Source of the DNA: Giardia intestinalis
Lineage: Eukaryota
Assembly (NCBI GenBank): GCA_000002435.2
Contig: CM018792.1
Strand: one strand, 5' to 3'
DNA length: 64,000 nucleotides
A program made the translations under genes and the position numbers. Below the pieces are notes generated by a model. The model was not told the origin of the DNA. It did not search any database and saw only the letters and a program-made list of their open reading frames with translations. Numbering within the stretch: position 1 is the first letter of the stretch; each line of letters opens with the position of its first letter. This document shows, piece after piece, positions 9,563 through 17,407 of the stretch.

Positions 9563-11065
9563 TCACAAAACCTTGCCCCGTAGGACAAGAAGAAGTCCAG
9601 AAAGCGATGCTGATAATACGCTCAGCATATTAACAGCTGTGTTAGATAATCGCAGTTTGCCCTGCCTCAGAGAAACGGCGCCACGGATACCCTCATTCCT
9701 ACCCAGCCTTCCATCTTGTAAGACACGGTTTTCTTGAAAGAGTGACCCTAGAAGAGAATCTGTAAGAGATCCTTGTATCCCTAGACAAAAGATATAGACG
9801 GCTTCGGGAAATGGTCTTCCTCCCTGCAGGCACCAAAGATATGCAATGGCTCCCGCACCAATAATAGATGCAACAGTCCCACAAAGAGACATGCCGCCGT
9901 CTGTGCCTGGAGGTGCAAGCTTGAGTCTTCCCAGGACAAAGACTCTGGACTCAGGCTTCGCTAGGCCCAGGCCAACCTCAGATGCCAAGGTATCAGCAAA
10001 TGCTTCTGCATAGTTAATGAACGTGAGAAAGAGAAAAGTCTGACGGTGTTGTCTCGGATATATGCGGGATATTAAGGAGCAAACCAGCCCTACATAGGAG
10101 TTGGAAAGAACCTGATATGCATTTCTGATAAATACATCAGCCACGAAGGTGGAGATGCGGTGCTTAAAAACTTTAGAGGCAAATAGGCTGCCGATGACAA
10201 AAAGAAATAGAGGGGTTAAGAATTCATAGCCGGCCAGCGCATGTGCAAAGAACACAAGGATTCCAGCCCGAGCCCCGTGAACAGTCAGATAATGTCTGGC
10301 TACACACAGCTCACCCATCAGGATAATAGCCCAAATAACACAGAACTTATAATAAGAATCAGCGATAATGTAATATCGCAGAACAAAGATCCCTATGAAG
10401 ACAGTTGTATTATCCCACTCGCCAGATATACGCAGAGCCTCAATGATCCCGGCAGAGACGGCGATAATGATCATCTGTGTCACGTTGAGGCCCAAATTAA
10501 GACCGAGAAAACTTTGAGATAGATAAAGACCAAGCATTGCTCCGCCGCATCCTACAAGCATACCTACAACTGTTTTTGCAGAGTCAGGCGCTCGGTAGCG
10601 CCGCCACCCAGAGGGGAAGAATGCAACTAATGAGGACAGCCCATCTCCAAACACGAGGCAAATCAAGCCCACGACACACACACGCCCGATGCTTCTGTTC
10701 CTTGTGTAGAGGAAGTTTGTTACTCCAGACCAGATCCCATATTCCAGTAAGGCGTGCTGTTTGATGATATTTTTCTTGTTCAAGCCCACTGAAACAGATC
10801 GGAGCCATGAGGTGTTCGCAAAGATGTAGAGTAAAATCCCAAATGCTATTGGCAACGCTGCTGATACCGAGGCTGCACCGATAGTCTGTGGGAGCACTGC
10901 AAGATGACATAGGTTCCCTGCCCCCGCCATCACGTGCAGACACCGCCTAGGTAATCCGCGAGGCATGACCTTCTGCAAGAGCACTAAAGTGCTGAGTAAT
11001 AAGCATACAAATGCCAGAAGAAGAGCGAGTGGTCTAACCGCCCCTTCTACGGGGAAACCCCCCAT
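9563..11065 (-). CDS. Multi-pass membrane protein of the TMEM19/DUF92 (VTE6-like) family, possibly with an additional N-terminal polyprenol-kinase-like module.
   Basis: C-terminal FADTLASEVG...PPGTDGGMSLCGTVASIIGAG matches the TMEM19/DUF92 signature (CGDTWASELG...PVGTNGGVT). An N-terminal GDGLSSLVAFFPSG resembles the GDGLA-x-x-G motif of dolichol/phytol kinases. More than ten hydrophobic helices. The track start at 11083 is GTG; the first ATG is at 11063-11065 in an attaaaaATGggg context. Confidence 0.55.
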   Translation of the reverse strand: MGGFPVEGAVRPLALLLAFVCLLLSTLVLLQKVMPRGLPRRCLHVMAGAGNLCHLAVLPQTIGAASVSAALPIAFGILLYIFANTSWLRSVSVGLNKKNIIKQHALLEYGIWSGVTNFLYTRNRSIGRVCVVGLICLVFGDGLSSLVAFFPSGWRRYRAPDSAKTVVGMLVGCGGAMLGLYLSQSFLGLNLGLNVTQMIIIAVSAGIIEALRISGEWDNTTVFIGIFVLRYYIIADSYYKFCVIWAIILMGELCVARHYLTVHGARAGILVFFAHALAGYEFLTPLFLFVIGSLFASKVFKHRISTFVADVFIRNAYQVLSNSYVGLVCSLISRIYPRQHRQTFLFLTFINYAEAFADTLASEVGLGLAKPESRVFVLGRLKLAPPGTDGGMSLCGTVASIIGAGAIAYLWCLQGGRPFPEAVYIFCLGIQGSLTDSLLGSLFQENRVLQDGRLGRNEGIRGAVSLRQGKLRLSNTAVNMLSVLSASLSGLLLVLRGKVL

Positions 11066-11204
11066 TTTTAATTTCAGTTCCACCGTACCACTTGTGGGTG
11101 CCTAGGTGGACGCCAACTTCTGAGGGTCCCACAGCAGAAACACTATGCTAGAATTATTCGTTGAACGAGGAGAAATAAAAAACTCATTCACATAGGACTT
11201 CGTG

Positions 11205-13721
11205 ATGATCTTCGTTTTGCTTTTTCTTTTAGGCGGAGTCTTCTTCGAGTGCACCACAGATAATGAATGTGGTGGTGATGGAGGAGTTTGTGACGTTGCA
11301 ATAAATGGGAAAAGATACTGTTCCAAGTGCGCAGGTAGCGATGCGGGAGCACGAGTGCCCATCAATGGAAAATGCAGACTGCTGAGCCTCTCACGGAGCA
11401 TATGCACAGTGCCCACGGGCAATAACCCTAATCCAGGCACGTGTACGGGCTGCATCCGTGACTTCCTCTTCTACAGGGGCGGGTGCTACCGCACGGCATC
11501 CCTGATCAACGCCATATGCAAGGAGAAGCACATCGTCGAGGAGGGGATGTACTGCGGGGCGTGCGCCATAGAGGGCGACGTCCCGATCGACGGGGTGTGC
11601 GTATCAGCAAGCACAGATAGCTCTGGAAACACGTGCGACAAGGGCGTGTGCACGACATGCGCAAGCGGATACTTCTTCCACTACGGGTCATGCTACAAAT
11701 TCGGAGGATCTCCAGGCAGCACTGTGTGTCCTAAGCCAACTAGCACTACTGGCTCTGTCTGTGATTCTTGCGGGTCGAAGTTCGTCAAGAACCCCAGTGC
11801 GAGCCCATCTGCCACCTCCTGCCTCGCGTGCTACGGCCTGGACGGGACCCTCTTCTGCGAGCGCTGCCGGATGAACGTGCTCACGAGCGCAGACGTGAAG
11901 CCCACTCTGTGCACACAGTGCAAAATAGGCTACGTGCCCGTGGATGGTCGTTGTGTGTCAACTTACTCTGCCACCTCGGCTCTTGCAGGGTGCTCTACCT
12001 ATAGCGGTAATGAGAATACAAAGGGACTTTGCGAAACGTGCTCCTCCGGCTACATGCTCTTCTACGGGAGCTGCTACTCTGTCAACGGCCCCCTCGCCCA
12101 GGCCATCTGCAAGACCGAGAACCAGATCTACCTTGGGGGAAGGGTCTTCTGCAAGCAGTGCGCCCAGGCAGACCACTACCCCATCAACGGCTTATGCATT
12201 GCTGATAAGGGATCACATACGTGCGAGGCGGGTATCTGCACAATATGCGACACCAGCACAACCCCCGTCGACAACTCCAAGGTTTTCCCGTTCTATAACG
12301 GCTGCTATGATGCAAACTCTGCAATCGGAAAGCTAATATGCCAGGAGGCGTCTAATGGAGCGTGCTCAACTTGCAATACAAACGAGACATCGAATATAAT
12401 AGCTAATCCTAATTCTGCAGATGGCCAACCAAAATGTCTTGGATGTTGGGACGAGGCAGCTACTGGGGTGGCCAACTGCGGAGGGTGTGCGACCGGCACA
12501 GACGGCGATTCCAAGATCGTCTGCAGCAAGTGCACCGACTCGACGGAACCCAAAGACAACACGTGCCCTCAGGCCCTCCCGCCCACAACGCCTGAAGGAT
12601 GCGCCGTGCAGGGCTGCCAGGCGTGCTCGAAGGACTCCCCCACGACGTGCGACGCCTGCTTCGAGCCTCTCATCATGAAAGAGGACAAGACGAAGTGCTT
12701 CGGGAGTTGCCTGGCGCTGGGCCCGGGCTACTACAACAACTCTGGGATATGCAGCCCATGCATAGAGAACTGTCTCCTTTGTACAGACGGGGCCACGTGC
12801 TCCCAGTGCGACGAAGGATATTATCTTGAACTATCGTCTGCTAATTCATCACAAGGTACTTGTAAGAAATGCGCTGCTGGCTGTTCTGCATGTAATGATG
12901 GCACTGACACTAGTTGTACAGCGTGCCTTCCTGGGTATTACATTGCAAGTGAGTCAAAAGCAAATAGAGCTGCAAAGTGTGTTCTATGTAACACTACTGA
13001 AAGCGACTACACTGGAATTCCAAATTGTATCGCTTGCTTTAGTACCGTAGGAAACAATGGGGCAAAGAATGTTAGGTGCAGTCAGTGCGAAGAAGGATAT
13101 ATTAAAAAACACAATGGATCTCAAGTTGTTTGTGAGCCTCCAACTCCAGAATGTAATGCCGCAATGTGCTCGGTTTGTGTTGAAAATAACCCAGATCGTT
13201 GTGAGCACTGCACGACCGGCGCGTACCTCTGCCCGCGGACGGCGGCGTGCACGAAGGACTGCGCCAGCTGCGGGGGCTCGATGTACCCCGACGAGGACCT
13301 CGGGGAGTGCCAGCCGTGCGACATCGCGAACTGCCGGGTCTGCGCGACGGGGCTCAAGTGCGAGAGCTGCGCGGAGAGCGCCGTCCCCATCTCCCCGGAC
13401 GTCTACCACACGGCGTGCATGGGCTGCAGCGACACCGGGGGCATGGACGGCTGGGTGGGCCTCGCGGGGTGCACGACCTGCGAGCTGACCGACAAGGGCG
13501 GCGGGAGCGTCAACTGCCTCGACCCTGGCTACTACCGGCGGGGCGGGCTCGGCGGGGGAGCAATCGCCGCCATCGTCATCGTCGTCCTCCTCGTCCTGGC
13601 CGTCGCCGGCTTCCTCGTCTGGTGGTTCGTCTTCAGGAGGGGCGGCCGGCCCAAGCGCGGGGCGAAGTACACATCGCTCATGCGGGGCGAGTCCTACGAC
13701 TACCGCCAGTCTCTAATATGA
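11205..13721 (+). CDS. High-cysteine membrane protein of the VSP-like family: signal peptide, many CXXC and GGCY repeats, a C-terminal transmembrane helix and a short basic tail. This is the non-VSP 'HCMP' type; the tail is not CRGKA.
   Basis: Signal peptide MIFVLLFLLGGVFFEC. There are more than 25 CXXC motifs. GGCY-type repeats include YRGGCYRT, HYGSCYKF, FYGSCYSV and FYNGCYDA. Transmembrane helix AIAAIVIVVLLVLAVAGFLVWWFVF followed by RRGGRPKRGAKY... The ATG is at 11205, directly after the GTG used by the ORF track. Confidence 0.75.
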   Translation: MIFVLLFLLGGVFFECTTDNECGGDGGVCDVAINGKRYCSKCAGSDAGARVPINGKCRLLSLSRSICTVPTGNNPNPGTCTGCIRDFLFYRGGCYRTASLINAICKEKHIVEEGMYCGACAIEGDVPIDGVCVSASTDSSGNTCDKGVCTTCASGYFFHYGSCYKFGGSPGSTVCPKPTSTTGSVCDSCGSKFVKNPSASPSATSCLACYGLDGTLFCERCRMNVLTSADVKPTLCTQCKIGYVPVDGRCVSTYSATSALAGCSTYSGNENTKGLCETCSSGYMLFYGSCYSVNGPLAQAICKTENQIYLGGRVFCKQCAQADHYPINGLCIADKGSHTCEAGICTICDTSTTPVDNSKVFPFYNGCYDANSAIGKLICQEASNGACSTCNTNETSNIIANPNSADGQPKCLGCWDEAATGVANCGGCATGTDGDSKIVCSKCTDSTEPKDNTCPQALPPTTPEGCAVQGCQACSKDSPTTCDACFEPLIMKEDKTKCFGSCLALGPGYYNNSGICSPCIENCLLCTDGATCSQCDEGYYLELSSANSSQGTCKKCAAGCSACNDGTDTSCTACLPGYYIASESKANRAAKCVLCNTTESDYTGIPNCIACFSTVGNNGAKNVRCSQCEEGYIKKHNGSQVVCEPPTPECNAAMCSVCVENNPDRCEHCTTGAYLCPRTAACTKDCASCGGSMYPDEDLGECQPCDIANCRVCATGLKCESCAESAVPISPDVYHTACMGCSDTGGMDGWVGLAGCTTCELTDKGGGSVNCLDPGYYRRGGLGGGAIAAIVIVVLLVLAVAGFLVWWFVFRRGGRPKRGAKYTSLMRGESYDYRQSLI

Positions 13722-14450
13722 TTCCCCAGTAAACGGAGCTATCGCCTGCCGGTGCCTGTCTCTGAACGCGCATATCCCGGAGATGTCGACGGAGCCGAGG
13801 AGCCTCCGCACCCGCAAGCGCTCCCCCGGAAAGGGCTCGGTGTCCGCCGTCTTCGAGATCGACACGCTGCACTCTGCGGCATCCGACGCGACGCAGGAGA
13901 GGCCGTTGTGGAGCACCACCCGGGAGATCTCGCTGACGTGGACGGACAGCATGGGCCGCAGGATGCACACTCGATGCCTGGCCCTGCTGGCAAAGTCCCT
14001 GACCTCGCAGTTGTAGTACCCCCGGAGCCCGAAGAAGGAGGCCCCGTGGACCCCGGTGATCGCCAGGGTCTCCAGGTCGTCCAGCAGGTGGTGGCCGAGG
14101 GCCAGGGCGTCGTAGCCGCCGGCGGACACAAAGCTCGCCAGTGTTCCGCGGCGGCAGCGAGAGCAGACGCTGCACGCAGACGCCTTCCTGGCCTCCTGCC
14201 CCGATGCATCCAGGCGGGCGATCTTGGCCGAGACGTCCATCCCAACCACCTGCTGCTCGAACGTCATGGCTCCCTCTGCGGCGTCGTCGATCGACAGCGC
14301 GCACGGGCAGAGGCTCCGTATCGTGTCCAGGATGAAGCCGGGTATCTTTGGGTCGAAGGTCACAGGGGTCACTTCCAGCGCCCCCAGGTCTCCTAGGCCG
14401 ATGGGGTCGAGCAATCCTCGTCTGGCCATTAGAGACAAAAGGGAAAGGTG
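13200..14450. other. GC-rich compositional island (about 68-72% GC against a ~49% background) spanning the convergent 3' ends of the high-cysteine membrane protein and TtcA-like genes.
   Basis: The sequence is dominated by G/C-ending codons. Several long stop-free spurious ORFs occur in other frames: 13057..13488, 13247..13732, 13678..14574, 13739..14245 and 13752..14396. Composition returns to background near 13200 and 14450. Confidence 0.6.
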
Positions 14451-15371
14451 AAGAAGAAGGCAGAGGCTGTCTTTTCCTCCTGAAAAGGCCACAGCTACTC
14501 GACGCAGGTTGCGAACGCGCTTTTCTCCAACCATAAAGGCAGCAATAGCGGACAGGACAGAGGTTGATGGACAAAAGGACTTGTGGACCACGTCCCCTTT
14601 ATCAGTTCTAAAGATAATCTTGACCGAAGCTAACTTATCTTGAATTGACGCCGAGGCAAAATACTCTGGAGAGCAATTGACCCTAAAATCACTGTTTGCC
14701 TGCAGCGTATGTCCTCGAAGCAACGCAGCAAAGGCTGAAGTAATATTTCTCAGGGCATGAGGGTTTATCTCTAGACTACTTGTGAGATACGACATAATCT
14801 TCAACGAATCACCAGGAGGTTCGGTAAAGCGCTTCCTGGCGGGCTGTGGGACAGTATGAGCTTCACCTGTGCATCCACTGATAAAAGAATCGAAATCCGG
14901 AGCGCATTGGAGCGAGTCAAGCTGGGTATCAGCTATGTAGAGGTACACATACATGATGCTATTTCGTGATGGCCCAGCCACGGTCGTTGCTGAAAACATT
15001 TCTAGGAACCAGTTTCTTCCCAACGTACTGTTTCTTGACCAATCTACCTCGAGGAAAAGCTTCTTATCTGGAAAGCAGGTAGAAAGCTCTTCGAGATCAG
15101 AGCAAGTCGTTAGCCCAAACGCTTGGCTAAGGCGATTTGTTATCTCCAGTGACCCGATGAGGCAGAGAGGAAAGAGTCCTCTTATCTTTCTCGCTGTGTG
15201 ATAAAGAAGTACTACGGCGAAGGCATAGTCGCGAATGGCTTTGTCGTCAGACAAGGGCTTGAGGAAATAAAAGACGGCCTTCTCCAGGACAGCTGTATCA
15301 TAGAGGATGTAAAGAGCCTGCTGAACGTGGCCGAGAGCGCTTTTCGGGGGTCTAAGAGAACGCTCGTGCAT
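13713..15371 (-). CDS. PP-loop ATPase of the TtcA/CTU1 (tRNA 2-thiolation) family carrying a ~296-aa N-terminal extension of unknown function.
   Basis: PP-loop motif VAFSGGKDSLCLL lies at nt 14466-14483. The sequence CSVCSRCRRGTLASFVSAGGYDALALGHHLLDDLETL is nearly colinear with E. coli TtcA [37 protein letters not shown]. ATG at 15369-15371. Confidence 0.6.
   Translation of the reverse strand: MHERSLRPPKSALGHVQQALYILYDTAVLEKAVFYFLKPLSDDKAIRDYAFAVVLLYHTARKIRGLFPLCLIGSLEITNRLSQAFGLTTCSDLEELSTCFPDKKLFLEVDWSRNSTLGRNWFLEMFSATTVAGPSRNSIMYVYLYIADTQLDSLQCAPDFDSFISGCTGEAHTVPQPARKRFTEPPGDSLKIMSYLTSSLEINPHALRNITSAFAALLRGHTLQANSDFRVNCSPEYFASASIQDKLASVKIIFRTDKGDVVHKSFCPSTSVLSAIAAFMVGEKRVRNLRRVAVAFSGGKDSLCLLLHLSLLSLMARRGLLDPIGLGDLGALEVTPVTFDPKIPGFILDTIRSLCPCALSIDDAAEGAMTFEQQVVGMDVSAKIARLDASGQEARKASACSVCSRCRRGTLASFVSAGGYDALALGHHLLDDLETLAITGVHGASFFGLRGYYNCEVRDFASRARHRVCILRPMLSVHVSEISRVVLHNGLSCVASDAAECSVSISKTADTEPFPGERLRVRRLLGSVDISGICAFRDRHRQAIAPFTGESY
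13728..13734 (+). terminator. Giardia-type polyadenylation signal AGTAAAC (AGTRAAY), starting 7 nt after the high-cysteine membrane protein stop codon.
   Basis: The sequence tgattccccAGTAAACgg is read directly. It is the only canonical AGTRAAY I found immediately downstream of a stop codon in this window. Confidence 0.4.
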
Positions 15372-15379
15372 AGAGGGTG

Positions 15380-17407
15380 TTAAATTTTGAAAAGATTCGC
15401 CATCTCCAGCAATAGCGGCAACAGTGGTTCGAGGTGTGAAGCACCTTTATTACTCTGCAATCTGGAGTGCAGGCTTTCGTACAATGCACTTGTCTGAGGC
15501 TGTTTTTTAACGGCTTCTGGAAGAAGGGAATATGCCTTAAAAGCAAGGCTGTCCTCTGGGATTGCTGGTGGAGAAGCCTGGACTTGTGGTGTCACAAGTG
15601 TCGCCTCCACTTGCTCGGTTTTTGGTGTCTGTTGATCAGCTGTGCAACTATCTATAAGTCCACCTGAAACACTAGCTCTGAGCTCCTCAACCAGACGTGG
15701 AGCATCTGGAGTCCCAAGTGCCATCAGTATGGATTCTGAAAGCCCAACGTCACACTGAGGTGATTGTAAAAAGCGCCCTGGATACGCGGCCCGGGGATCA
15801 GCCAGTCCCGAAATGGCAGAAACGGTAAGCCTATCGCGAATGCCTGTGTGCCCTCTCTCGTTACCTGCAGGCATTCCAGATGTGGAGAGGCCCAAGTTCA
15901 CGTTCACTCCAACGCTTCCAGCTAGGGAGCGAGTGAAGGCGTACTTGGAATGTGATAAGCTCTGGCCGGTATCGATGCCCGTGACTGTCTGAGATGCTGA
16001 GGTGACCGATGCAATTGTGTCCTCCAGAAGGCTCAGATTCCCCATAGACGCTTGCGAGAGGTCAAGGCCCCCGGAGTCCTCCTTGTCTAGAACAACGGTG
16101 ATGTCACCATGTGTATTCTTCATGATCATTGGCTTGTATGCCAAGACGATGTTGACCGTGTTCTCAGTAGCAGGCGGCTGTGCAGCCTCCGGGGCTGCGT
16201 GAAGAATGCTTACACGGGTGCTTCGAGCAAGAGAGTTCGGGTGTCCGATGGCCGTAAAGATATTAGTCTCAATAAATCCTAGATTGCGTACTTCGTCACG
16301 CACAAGCTTGTGCACCTCGAATATGCTGACACGGTCCTTGGGGCGCTGGACAAGACACAGGGAAATAATGTTCTTGAGTGCGTCTGAATACTTGACACGC
16401 TTGTCCTGAAAGCTGAACTCTGCGCGATAGTTATAGCGAAGATCGTTGTCTGGAAATGGCAACCGTCTATACATCAGTCGATACAGCAATATTCCGAAGG
16501 CAAAGACATCAACAGCAGTGCCCAGGGGAAATTCAGGGTCGATCTTGATCTGCTCGGGGGCCCGGAAGCACGGGGTTGTCTTCAGCTCCAAGGACCTCAT
16601 CAAATCCTTCATCCCCTGCTCATTGTTCTTCATTAGATCTTGAAGCCTCTCGGAATCGTAAGACTCTGTGGTGCAGGATCCAAAGTCACAAAGCCTAAGA
16701 AGCTCTGGAAACTTGGTTGTGCAGCCATTATTGGCCAGTATATCGTCCAAATCATATGGCTCCAAGATCAGAATATTTTCTAACTTGAGGTCTCGATGTG
16801 AGCACCCCTTGCTGTGCAGACAGAGAATAGCAAGGGTGATGTTGTATGCAAACCTCCATATGAGTGGTTCTGGAAGAAAGACCTTGCGCTCTGAACATTT
16901 AATAAGGAGTTTGACGCAGTTCCCGCCCGAGCAATATTCAAGCAGTAGGCGGATAGTGGTGCAAGGAAGCCTTTTCATGCTATGCTTTCCCCCGTCCTGG
17001 ACTCCATGTCCCACACCGGGGACGGGGAGCGCGGAGGATGACAGCTTTAGTTCACGTTCCTGGGGCGCAAATTGTGATGATGTGATACTTGATGCTAGAT
17101 AGGACTGGGAACTGTGCATGCCATTTACGGTTAAATACTCATCAAAACACGCAAAATCTGCAGGGATATAAGTATCATCTAGAAGTAATCCGTGGAATCT
17201 AACAACACACTTTTCGTTGTTGAATCGGAGATGGAAGTAGATCTCTGTTATTGCATCATCATAAACCTTCAGGTCTGACACAGAAAGATGCTTCAATACA
17301 TACTGTTCTCCCGCACAGGATGCAGAATAAATGCGTGCAGATCCGCCCCTTGCAATCTCTTGGCCCACAATGATCTCCTTGTCTCCGAAACGCAAAATGC
17401 TATCCAT
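15380..17407 (-). CDS. Ser/Thr protein kinase of the NAK family (AAK1/Ark1/Prk1-like): N-terminal kinase domain followed by a long low-complexity C-terminal tail.
   Basis: Catalytic loop HRDLKLENILI, activation-loop LCDFGSCT, then CFRAPEQIKID...PLGTAVDVFAFGILLY. Compare the NAK consensus HRDLKVENLLL / KLCDFGSAT / YRTPEMVDLY. ATG at 17405-17407. Confidence 0.65.
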   Translation of the reverse strand: MDSILRFGDKEIIVGQEIARGGSARIYSASCAGEQYVLKHLSVSDLKVYDDAITEIYFHLRFNNEKCVVRFHGLLLDDTYIPADFACFDEYLTVNGMHSSQSYLASSITSSQFAPQERELKLSSSALPVPGVGHGVQDGGKHSMKRLPCTTIRLLLEYCSGGNCVKLLIKCSERKVFLPEPLIWRFAYNITLAILCLHSKGCSHRDLKLENILILEPYDLDDILANNGCTTKFPELLRLCDFGSCTTESYDSERLQDLMKNNEQGMKDLMRSLELKTTPCFRAPEQIKIDPEFPLGTAVDVFAFGILLYRLMYRRLPFPDNDLRYNYRAEFSFQDKRVKYSDALKNIISLCLVQRPKDRVSIFEVHKLVRDEVRNLGFIETNIFTAIGHPNSLARSTRVSILHAAPEAAQPPATENTVNIVLAYKPMIMKNTHGDITVVLDKEDSGGLDLSQASMGNLSLLEDTIASVTSASQTVTGIDTGQSLSHSKYAFTRSLAGSVGVNVNLGLSTSGMPAGNERGHTGIRDRLTVSAISGLADPRAAYPGRFLQSPQCDVGLSESILMALGTPDAPRLVEELRASVSGGLIDSCTADQQTPKTEQVEATLVTPQVQASPPAIPEDSLAFKAYSLLPEAVKKQPQTSALYESLHSRLQSNKGASHLEPLLPLLLEMANLFKI

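Follow-up and report, generated by a model that had tools for sequence, protein, structure and literature searches.

GC-biased gene conversion (gBGC) has been described in yeast, in mammals and in multigene families. In Giardia, GC-rich islands with atypical codon usage have been reported around VSP and high-cysteine membrane protein (HCMP) genes of WB, GS and P15 (Franzen et al., 2009, PMC2723961; Jerlstrom-Hultqvist et al., 2010, PMC3091692), with segmental conversion also described among the VSP genes (summarised in Xu et al., 2020, PMC7641422). Here we describe one GC-rich island in a 64,000-nt stretch of Giardia intestinalis DNA (contig CM018792.1 of assembly GCA_000002435.2; the whole stretch is referred to as the window), which covers the 3' ends of two convergent genes, one encoding an HCMP of the VSP family and the other a TtcA-like PP-loop protein. 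Within the PP-loop gene the island coincides with the part that also occurs in truncated copies at other loci, and the copies evolve in concert. We consider inter-locus gene conversion among these copies, with a GC-biased outcome, the likely explanation of the island. Our literature searches recovered no paper on this locus, and GC-biased conversion or third-codon-position GC content (GC3) co-occurs with Giardia only in papers on other topics, none of which reports such conversion at Giardia protein-coding loci.

A third-position GC island with edges at the limits of paralogy

Measured over 200 bp across the whole 64 kb, GC content has a mean of 0.491 (sd 0.048; window average 49%), and values of 0.62 and above are confined to positions 11751-14400, with 13151-14400 as the sole long run. 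A preliminary description of this DNA had reported a jump to about 70% GC at roughly 13200 and a return to background by roughly 14450, in agreement with the values obtained here: GC changes from 0.41-0.44 (12800-13199) to 0.64-0.72 (13200-14299), falls to 0.42-0.52 by 14500, and amounts to 0.680 over the block 13182-14408. We take this block as the island, based on GC3 change points at 13203 and 14414 and on identity to a paralogous locus, which is 97-100% within the block, rises at ~13182 and ends at 14408. A second copy of the island was looked for within the 64-kb window and none was found. The island takes in ~540 bp at the 3' end of the HCMP gene (~520 bp in the preliminary description; plus strand, 11202-13721, 839 aa; Pfam PF03302 VSP, E = 2.1e-39) and ~700 bp of the full-length PP-loop gene (minus strand, 13713-15371, 552 aa), an ORF whose product is identical to the Giardia WB 'PP-loop family protein' XP_001708332.1, which assigns the window to assemblage A. 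The convergent ORFs share 9 bp at their ends, and the island, without any intergenic DNA, is therefore entirely coding.

The compositional shift affects third codon positions only, where GC3 reaches 0.86-1.0, and neither gene shows a change in GC1 or GC2. The likelihood change point of the PP-loop gene lies after codon 319 at nt 14414 (support codons 318-329) and divides a part with a GC3 of 0.48 from a later part with 0.86; in the HCMP gene GC3 increases from 0.31 to 0.96 at a change point at nt 13203. Both C-ending and G-ending codons are enriched among the island codons of the PP-loop gene (112 and 89 of 233, respectively). GC3 is not uniformly high across this ORF and its neighbours, with values of 0.51 in the adjacent kinase gene and 0.46 in the adjacent DUF92 gene. 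Codons 1-321 of the PP-loop gene (14409-15371, minus strand), which make up its single-copy 5' part and include an N-terminal region under purifying selection, have a GC3 of 0.48, in line with the earlier statement that the N-terminal extension is of ordinary composition. The SGGKDS ATP-binding motif (aa 297-302) is encoded at 14466-14483 on the minus strand, exactly where it had been placed; contrary to the earlier view that the island holds the whole catalytic domain, however, this motif and about 20 further codons lie outside the island in DNA of ordinary composition, and the motif is missing from the truncated paralogs.

The 3' part of the PP-loop gene is duplicated. According to a cluster look-up, WB encodes two 272-aa proteins in addition to the 552-aa protein, P0004 (XP_001709625.1) and P0031 (XP_001707151.1), located on two chromosomes, each consisting of an unrelated ~40-aa N-terminus followed by a match to residues 322-552 of the window protein with 1 and 3 differences, respectively. 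A profile search had recovered one 272-aa WB protein and a 258-aa protein of P15, and at least one truncated copy each is present in A2 and E. The A2 (DH) truncated ORF (L009, 8001-8816) is followed by a convergent 834-aa VSP-family gene with a 9-bp overlap, and positions 11224-14408 of the window, comprising the HCMP gene and the last 231 PP-loop codons, align to this locus with 88.8% identity over 3194 bp (blastn). Positions 13709-14408 match the truncated locus of P15 (E), with its ORF at 4001-4777 of L007. Both alignments stop at nt 14408, which corresponds to codon 322 and is only 6 nt away from the point at which GC3 changes. In a sliding comparison with the paralog, identity is 0.92-1.00 at 13161-14360 and ~0.3 past 14460; to the left of the island it is 0.51-0.64 at 12764-13160 and mosaic (0.77-0.99) at 11364-12763. 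Over 36 blocks of 30 codons, a correlation exists between GC3 and paralog identity (Spearman rho 0.78, p = 2e-8). The truncated loci of A2 and E are 86.6% identical over 4788 bp, from a 1451-aa gene upstream across the junction and through the copy, and are therefore orthologous, which places the duplication before the A/E split. No truncated copy of ~270 aa was identified in the protein clusters of assemblage B and of the further lineage L002 (ERR3333382), all members of which are full-length forms (11 of 11, including a 458-aa partial sequence, and 2 of 2, respectively).

The copies of one genome resemble each other more closely than they resemble their counterparts in other lineages. Full-length and truncated copies are 99.3% identical within P15 and 98.2% identical between the WB full-length and DH truncated sequences, and all comparisons of A with E copies yield 89%. 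All 64 informative quartet sites group the copies by genome and none groups them by locus, as orthology would require. For the WB full-length, DH full-length and DH truncated sequences, sites in favour of each of the three possible groupings alternate along the island and are mutually incompatible, and both DH copies, unlike WB, have a deletion of 3 bp at 13722-13724. Furthermore, WB and DH have diverged at synonymous sites by 0.041 in the multi-copy part of the gene and by 0.004 in the single-copy part. With a shared breakpoint, orthologous flanks, grouping by genome, mosaic sites and a shared indel, the locus displays concerted evolution by inter-locus gene conversion.

A related pattern occurs in the 5' half of the HCMP gene. 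At 11559-12258, the HCMP genes of the full-length (L010) and truncated (L009) DH loci are 93-99% identical, compared with 78-97% between WB and DH, and sites pairing the two DH loci number 18, 7, 3, 4, 6, 0 and 4 in successive 100-nt bins. This points to conversion that took place recently, after A1 and A2 had separated.

Orthologs of the full two-part protein were identified in B (GS, GL50581_2769), A2 (DH), E (P15, GLP15_3840) and L002. The order of kinase, PP-loop and HCMP genes is kept in A2, B and E, including the convergent and overlapping VSP-family gene; in L002 the two-part protein follows the same kinase gene and the contig stops before any HCMP. GC3 of the shared 3' codons is 0.86 in WB, 0.84-0.85 in DH and 0.78 in P15 (full-length and truncated copies alike), compared with 0.54 in B and 0.38 in L002. 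When only codons of conserved amino acids are considered, third-position GC in the island part amounts to 119/137 in WB, 72/137 in GS and 52/137 in L002, whereas the 5' parts are alike (77/168, 72/168 and 58/168, respectively). Thus, of the two features that the preliminary description had suggested comparing among diplomonads, the N-terminal extension recurs in B, E and L002, with long N-terminal regions also present in a very distant Giardia and in Spironucleus, whereas the GC3 step is absent in L002 and mild in B. The very distant Giardia protein (P0003; 685 aa) has the extreme N-terminus RSLKP.K in common with the window protein, and ~210 residues precede the PP-loop of the 409-aa Spironucleus homolog. 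Because syntenic orthologs exist, GC3 is ordinary in GS and L002, and the N-terminus is under selection, the composition step is a lineage-specific silent-site change in a vertically inherited gene. The gene of the distant Giardia (L005, 1828-3885; Logan SRR14944320) has a GC3 of 0.84 along its whole length, without a step.

Origin of the GC enrichment

To polarise synonymous changes, the ancestral state was defined by agreement between GS and L002. AT-to-GC changes per AT site amount to 0.77 in the island and 0.36 in the single-copy part (Fisher p = 2e-5), while GC-to-AT changes per GC site amount to 0.10 and 0.42, respectively (Fisher p = 0.008). An AT-to-GC silent-site bias confined to the converted tract, with edges that coincide with the paralogy edges, is the pattern described for gBGC, and we infer that the enrichment is due to conversion bias itself rather than to some other process spread by conversion. 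The second scenario of the preliminary description, GC-biased conversion at a convergent gene pair, came close to these data, although convergence is not the cause; what matters is that a multi-copy tract exchanges with truncated paralogs.

In this reading, a ~3.2-kb segment containing the HCMP gene and the last 231 PP-loop codons was copied to another locus before the A/E split, giving rise to a truncated 'PP-loop' ORF without SGGKDS, of which WB now has two. Ongoing gene conversion between the loci keeps copies of the same genome 98-99% identical, and the conversion, or a fixation bias accompanying it, would favour G or C at silent sites, thereby raising GC3 to 0.86-1.0 with the protein unchanged. 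The right edge of the island would then represent the duplication breakpoint within the PP-loop gene, and the left edge the border of a divergent HCMP cassette that stays outside the exchange.

A laterally acquired or otherwise distinct-origin TtcA module had been the first scenario of the preliminary description. It finds some basis in the protein itself, as bacterial TtcA is the family it resembles most (52.7 bits, compared with 17.8 for archaeal NcsA/Ncs6), the profile matches outside diplomonads (E-value threshold 0.001) are all short prokaryote-type PP-loop proteins, with those checked or named being mostly TtcA-like (P0014 is NcsA-like), and the N-terminal region has no homolog outside Giardia. 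A recently acquired bacterial module joined to a Giardia-specific N-terminal domain would, however, hardly account for an island that includes 540 bp of a Giardia-specific HCMP gene, differs from its surroundings in third codon positions alone and leaves out the PP-loop motif itself. Furthermore, a gene of this architecture adjoins the kinase gene in each of A2, B, E and L002 and also occurs in the very distant Giardia, GC3 is ordinary in B and L002, and Spironucleus has a homolog; any bacterial origin would therefore be older than the radiation of the diplomonads and leaves a step confined to A and E unexplained. Recent transfer is extremely improbable as an explanation of the island, and with orthologs in the same gene order and a shift of third positions only, the first scenario is refuted.

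The two remaining alternatives concern silent sites. A regional mutation bias toward GC at one locus, caused by VSP/HCMP chromatin, replication or repair and then spread by unbiased conversion, would agree with the generally high GC content of Giardia VSP, HCMP and reverse-transcriptase regions (PMC3091692), with the 0.57-0.66 GC DNA with reverse-transcriptase-like ORFs that follows the P15 truncated copy and with the GC3-rich HCMP 3' end in B. Contrastingly, the four A and E loci, full-length and truncated, step from 0.44-0.48 to 0.63-0.67 GC exactly at the paralogy junction, so that a locus-wide environment would have to end at the same nucleotide in unrelated flanks. As the truncated loci step there too (0.44 upstream, 0.63-0.67 downstream), no locus lies in generally GC-rich surroundings on the upstream side of the junction. 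Within the HCMP gene, moreover, GC3 follows paralog identity block by block, and we regard mutation bias as rather unlikely. Selection on silent sites is quite improbable, whether it were to act on the efficiency of translation, on the structure of mRNA or dsRNA at the convergent 3' ends or on an alternative-frame gene. GC3 does vary among Giardia genes, C-ending codons are the commonest in the island, the transcripts must overlap at their 3' ends given the 9-bp ORF overlap, and the island contains long alternative-frame ORFs. The shift nevertheless begins in mid-gene at the duplication breakpoint and not at a domain or transcript boundary, affects truncated copies without an ATP-binding loop equally, is lacking from the functional orthologs in B and L002, and raises G-ending as well as C-ending codons. 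The alternative-frame ORFs were rejected as genes, since none of them matches a Pfam family and GC-rich DNA, being poor in stop codons, is expected to contain such ORFs, and an Rfam scan of 11000-15600 matched no family.

Several observations weigh against GC-biased inter-locus conversion as the explanation of the island. Most of the young singleton differences that distinguish the A copies run from GC to AT (~21 vs 8), an excess that fits a fixation bias opposing mutation and fits a now-decaying island equally well. As the copies are homogenised, they are not independent witnesses to the origin of the enrichment. The HCMP 3' end in assemblage B has a GC3 of 0.9-0.97 with the same left edge, and this part of the island therefore predates the A/E duplication seen here. 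B also exhibits a mild GC3 rise (0.54) in the 3' half of the PP-loop gene without a known truncated copy; a search for HCMP paralogs in B with the C-terminal 179 aa of the protein yielded just 4 partial matches, and the count of truncated copies in B and L002 covers called proteins rather than complete genomes. Finally, the truncated loci of A2 (DH, L009) and E (P15, L007) stand in for the two WB copies in all nucleotide comparisons.

The PP-loop protein and the surrounding features

The PP-loop protein is TtcA-like according to its profile scores and motifs, without being a demonstrable TtcA equivalog. Among curated NCBIfam models it scores highest against TtcA (NF007972; 52.7 bits, cut-off 272), followed by the TilS N-terminal domain (46.3 bits) and NcsA (17.8 bits, cut-off 500), and the Pfam PP-loop match of the 552-aa protein reaches 37.2 bits. 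The Spironucleus and distant Giardia homologs score 71.1 and 24.9 bits against NF007972, so that none of the three proteins attains the equivalog cut-off. In a profile search of the PDB, NcsA (6scy, 23.7 bits) likewise ranks below TilS (28.8 bits). The domain hence scores better as TtcA than as NcsA/Ncs6 as far as profile scores go, and its NcsA score, below those of both TtcA and TilS, does not place it with CTU1/Ncs6/NcsA. The 'strikingly close' resemblance to bacterial TtcA noted in the preliminary description applies to the motifs and does not extend to the protein as a whole, the best bacterial relatives being 22-31% identical.

Motifs in common with TtcA-like proteins in the alignment include SGGKDS, which is invariant at aa 297-302, a C-x-x-C motif with RRG, ALGHH..D..ET and RP. 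The central Cys-x-x-Cys of TtcA-type enzymes is represented by CSVCSRCRRG (aa 400-409; 14145-14174, minus strand, within the island), and both cysteines of CSVC (aa 400-403) are invariant in 8 of 8 aligned sequences. In TtcA of Salmonella and E. coli, these central cysteines are Fe-S ligands needed for activity. A candidate third Fe-S ligand is the Cys of SDAAEC (aa 496-501; 13869-13886, minus strand), located at aa 501, which aligns 3 columns off the Cys of the bacterial xCPx motif, is invariant in the 4 aligned Giardia sequences and is also present in Spironucleus. By family resemblance, the protein likely functions in Fe-S-dependent, ATP-dependent tRNA thiolation. A literature search on TtcA or PP-loop proteins in Giardia returned nothing on the gene at 13713-15371.

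The N-terminal extension is translated, given that its 280 codons are under purifying selection (pN 0.22, pS 0.64-0.76, dN/dS ~0.1-0.2). The possibility, raised in the preliminary description, that the extension is untranslated and the protein starts at an internal Met was accordingly rejected; the 272-aa and 258-aa proteins belong to other loci and have a different N-terminus. A profile of the N-terminal region searched against 1.84 billion representative proteins recovered Giardia proteins only, apart from one weak repetitive match. AlphaFold2 modelling of the N-terminal 290 aa from a 4-sequence alignment yielded a mean pLDDT of 44; residues 30-110 were modelled as alternating strands and helices (pLDDT 60-85) and possibly form a small alpha/beta domain.

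The truncated ORFs of 258-272 aa are annotated as 'PP-loop family protein' despite lacking SGGKDS, and score 26.1 bits against a Pfam cut-off of 27. Their novel ~40-aa N-terminus is partly conserved between A and E, and the ORF has been open since before the A/E split. In P15, the full-length (L011, 4001-5662) and truncated (L007, 4001-4777) copies differ at 5 sites in 229 codons, all nonsynonymous, an odd pattern although such low numbers do not permit an interpretation. The P15 truncated copy ends exactly at the PP-loop stop codon, and the HCMP paralog present downstream in A2 is replaced by DNA of 0.57-0.66 GC (L007, 5545-7833) containing ORF fragments that, judged by eye, resemble retrotransposon reverse transcriptases.

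The gene order at the locus is DUF92 membrane protein (minus strand), HCMP (plus), PP-loop protein (minus) and protein kinase (minus). Packing is very tight, with the HCMP and PP-loop ORFs overlapping at their stop codons (13713-13721, 9 bp) and only 8 bp (15372-15379) between the end of the kinase ORF at its stop codon and the ATG of the PP-loop gene, whose promoter must therefore sit inside the kinase gene. The HCMP transmembrane helix is encoded at 13557-13634, and the protein ends in ...YRQSLI, not in CRGKA. At the left island edge, the HCMP gene contains a divergent cassette of low GC3 (0.2-0.4; 12760-13160, plus strand, codons ~520-653) with 51-64% identity to the paralog. WB and DH are 56-81% identical in the cassette, compared with 95-100% in its flanks, and align nearly without gaps, the three gap columns falling within one 100-nt bin. 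The cassette has the appearance of a hypervariable part of the HCMP ectodomain that has been replaced. GC3 is low as well in the assemblage B ortholog of the cassette.

Comparison with known systems

The locus serves as a natural experiment within one gene, as the single-copy half has a GC3 of 0.48 and the multi-copy half of 0.86, compared with 0.38-0.54 in the lineages in which no extra copy was seen. We give an even chance to the broader proposition that ectopic conversion among variable-gene regions is GC-biased and causes the VSP/HCMP GC islands in general, with the PP-loop fragment providing the internal control; a bolder side reading would assign the truncated copies, which retain the Fe-S and C-terminal parts and lack the ATP loop, a function as partners of the complete enzyme. 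Should the same pattern be present throughout the genome, it would speak for GC-biased conversion in Giardia, the recombination biology of which is debated, and would provide a simple compositional marker of conversion tracts; the locus is of some value as a test case. In addition, the analysis removes a tempting false lead, that of a gene made chimeric by the recent arrival of a bacterial domain, and corrects an annotation trap, as the two 272-aa WB 'PP-loop family proteins' represent duplication fragments without a PP-loop.

In relation to bacterial TtcA, the tRNA 2-thiocytidine(32) synthetase that contains a PP-loop and depends on an Fe-S cluster, the Giardia protein has the same set of core motifs, and TtcA is its top-scoring curated family. 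It differs in its score far below the cut-off, its low overall identity, two insertions in the domain, a Giardia-specific N-terminal extension of ~250-280 aa and the SDAAEC context of the third Cys in place of the bacterial xCPx.

In comparison with gBGC elsewhere, the locus displays the same AT-to-GC silent-site bias within a recombining tract, with both G and C favoured whatever the function of the protein. Here, however, the conversion would be ectopic, taking place between loci of an organism without observed meiosis, and the bias is derived from the substitution pattern. As in the segmental conversion of VSP genes (PMC7641422), inter-locus identity is mosaic, and paralogs of the same genome are closer than orthologs of different lineages. 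In contrast to that system, the tract described here carries a fragment from outside the family, the 3' 231 codons of the PP-loop gene, and a functional full-length gene acts as exchange partner.

The island belongs with the VSP/HCMP-associated GC-rich islands of Giardia in its raised G+C content and atypical codon usage at a VSP-family gene, within a gene-dense, syntenic region of ~49% GC. Unlike those islands, it is associated with an HCMP gene that keeps the same neighbours in A, B and E, extends ~700 bp into a conserved housekeeping-type gene and ends at a mapped duplication breakpoint, which ties composition to multi-copy status rather than to gene family. GC-rich islands, cysteine-rich gene families and gene conversion, usually described apart in Giardia, are thus linked at one locus, which is a further example of the known GC-island and conversion pattern with the twist that a fragment of an unrelated conserved gene is caught in the tract, subject to the same silent-site drive and bounded by the breakpoint.

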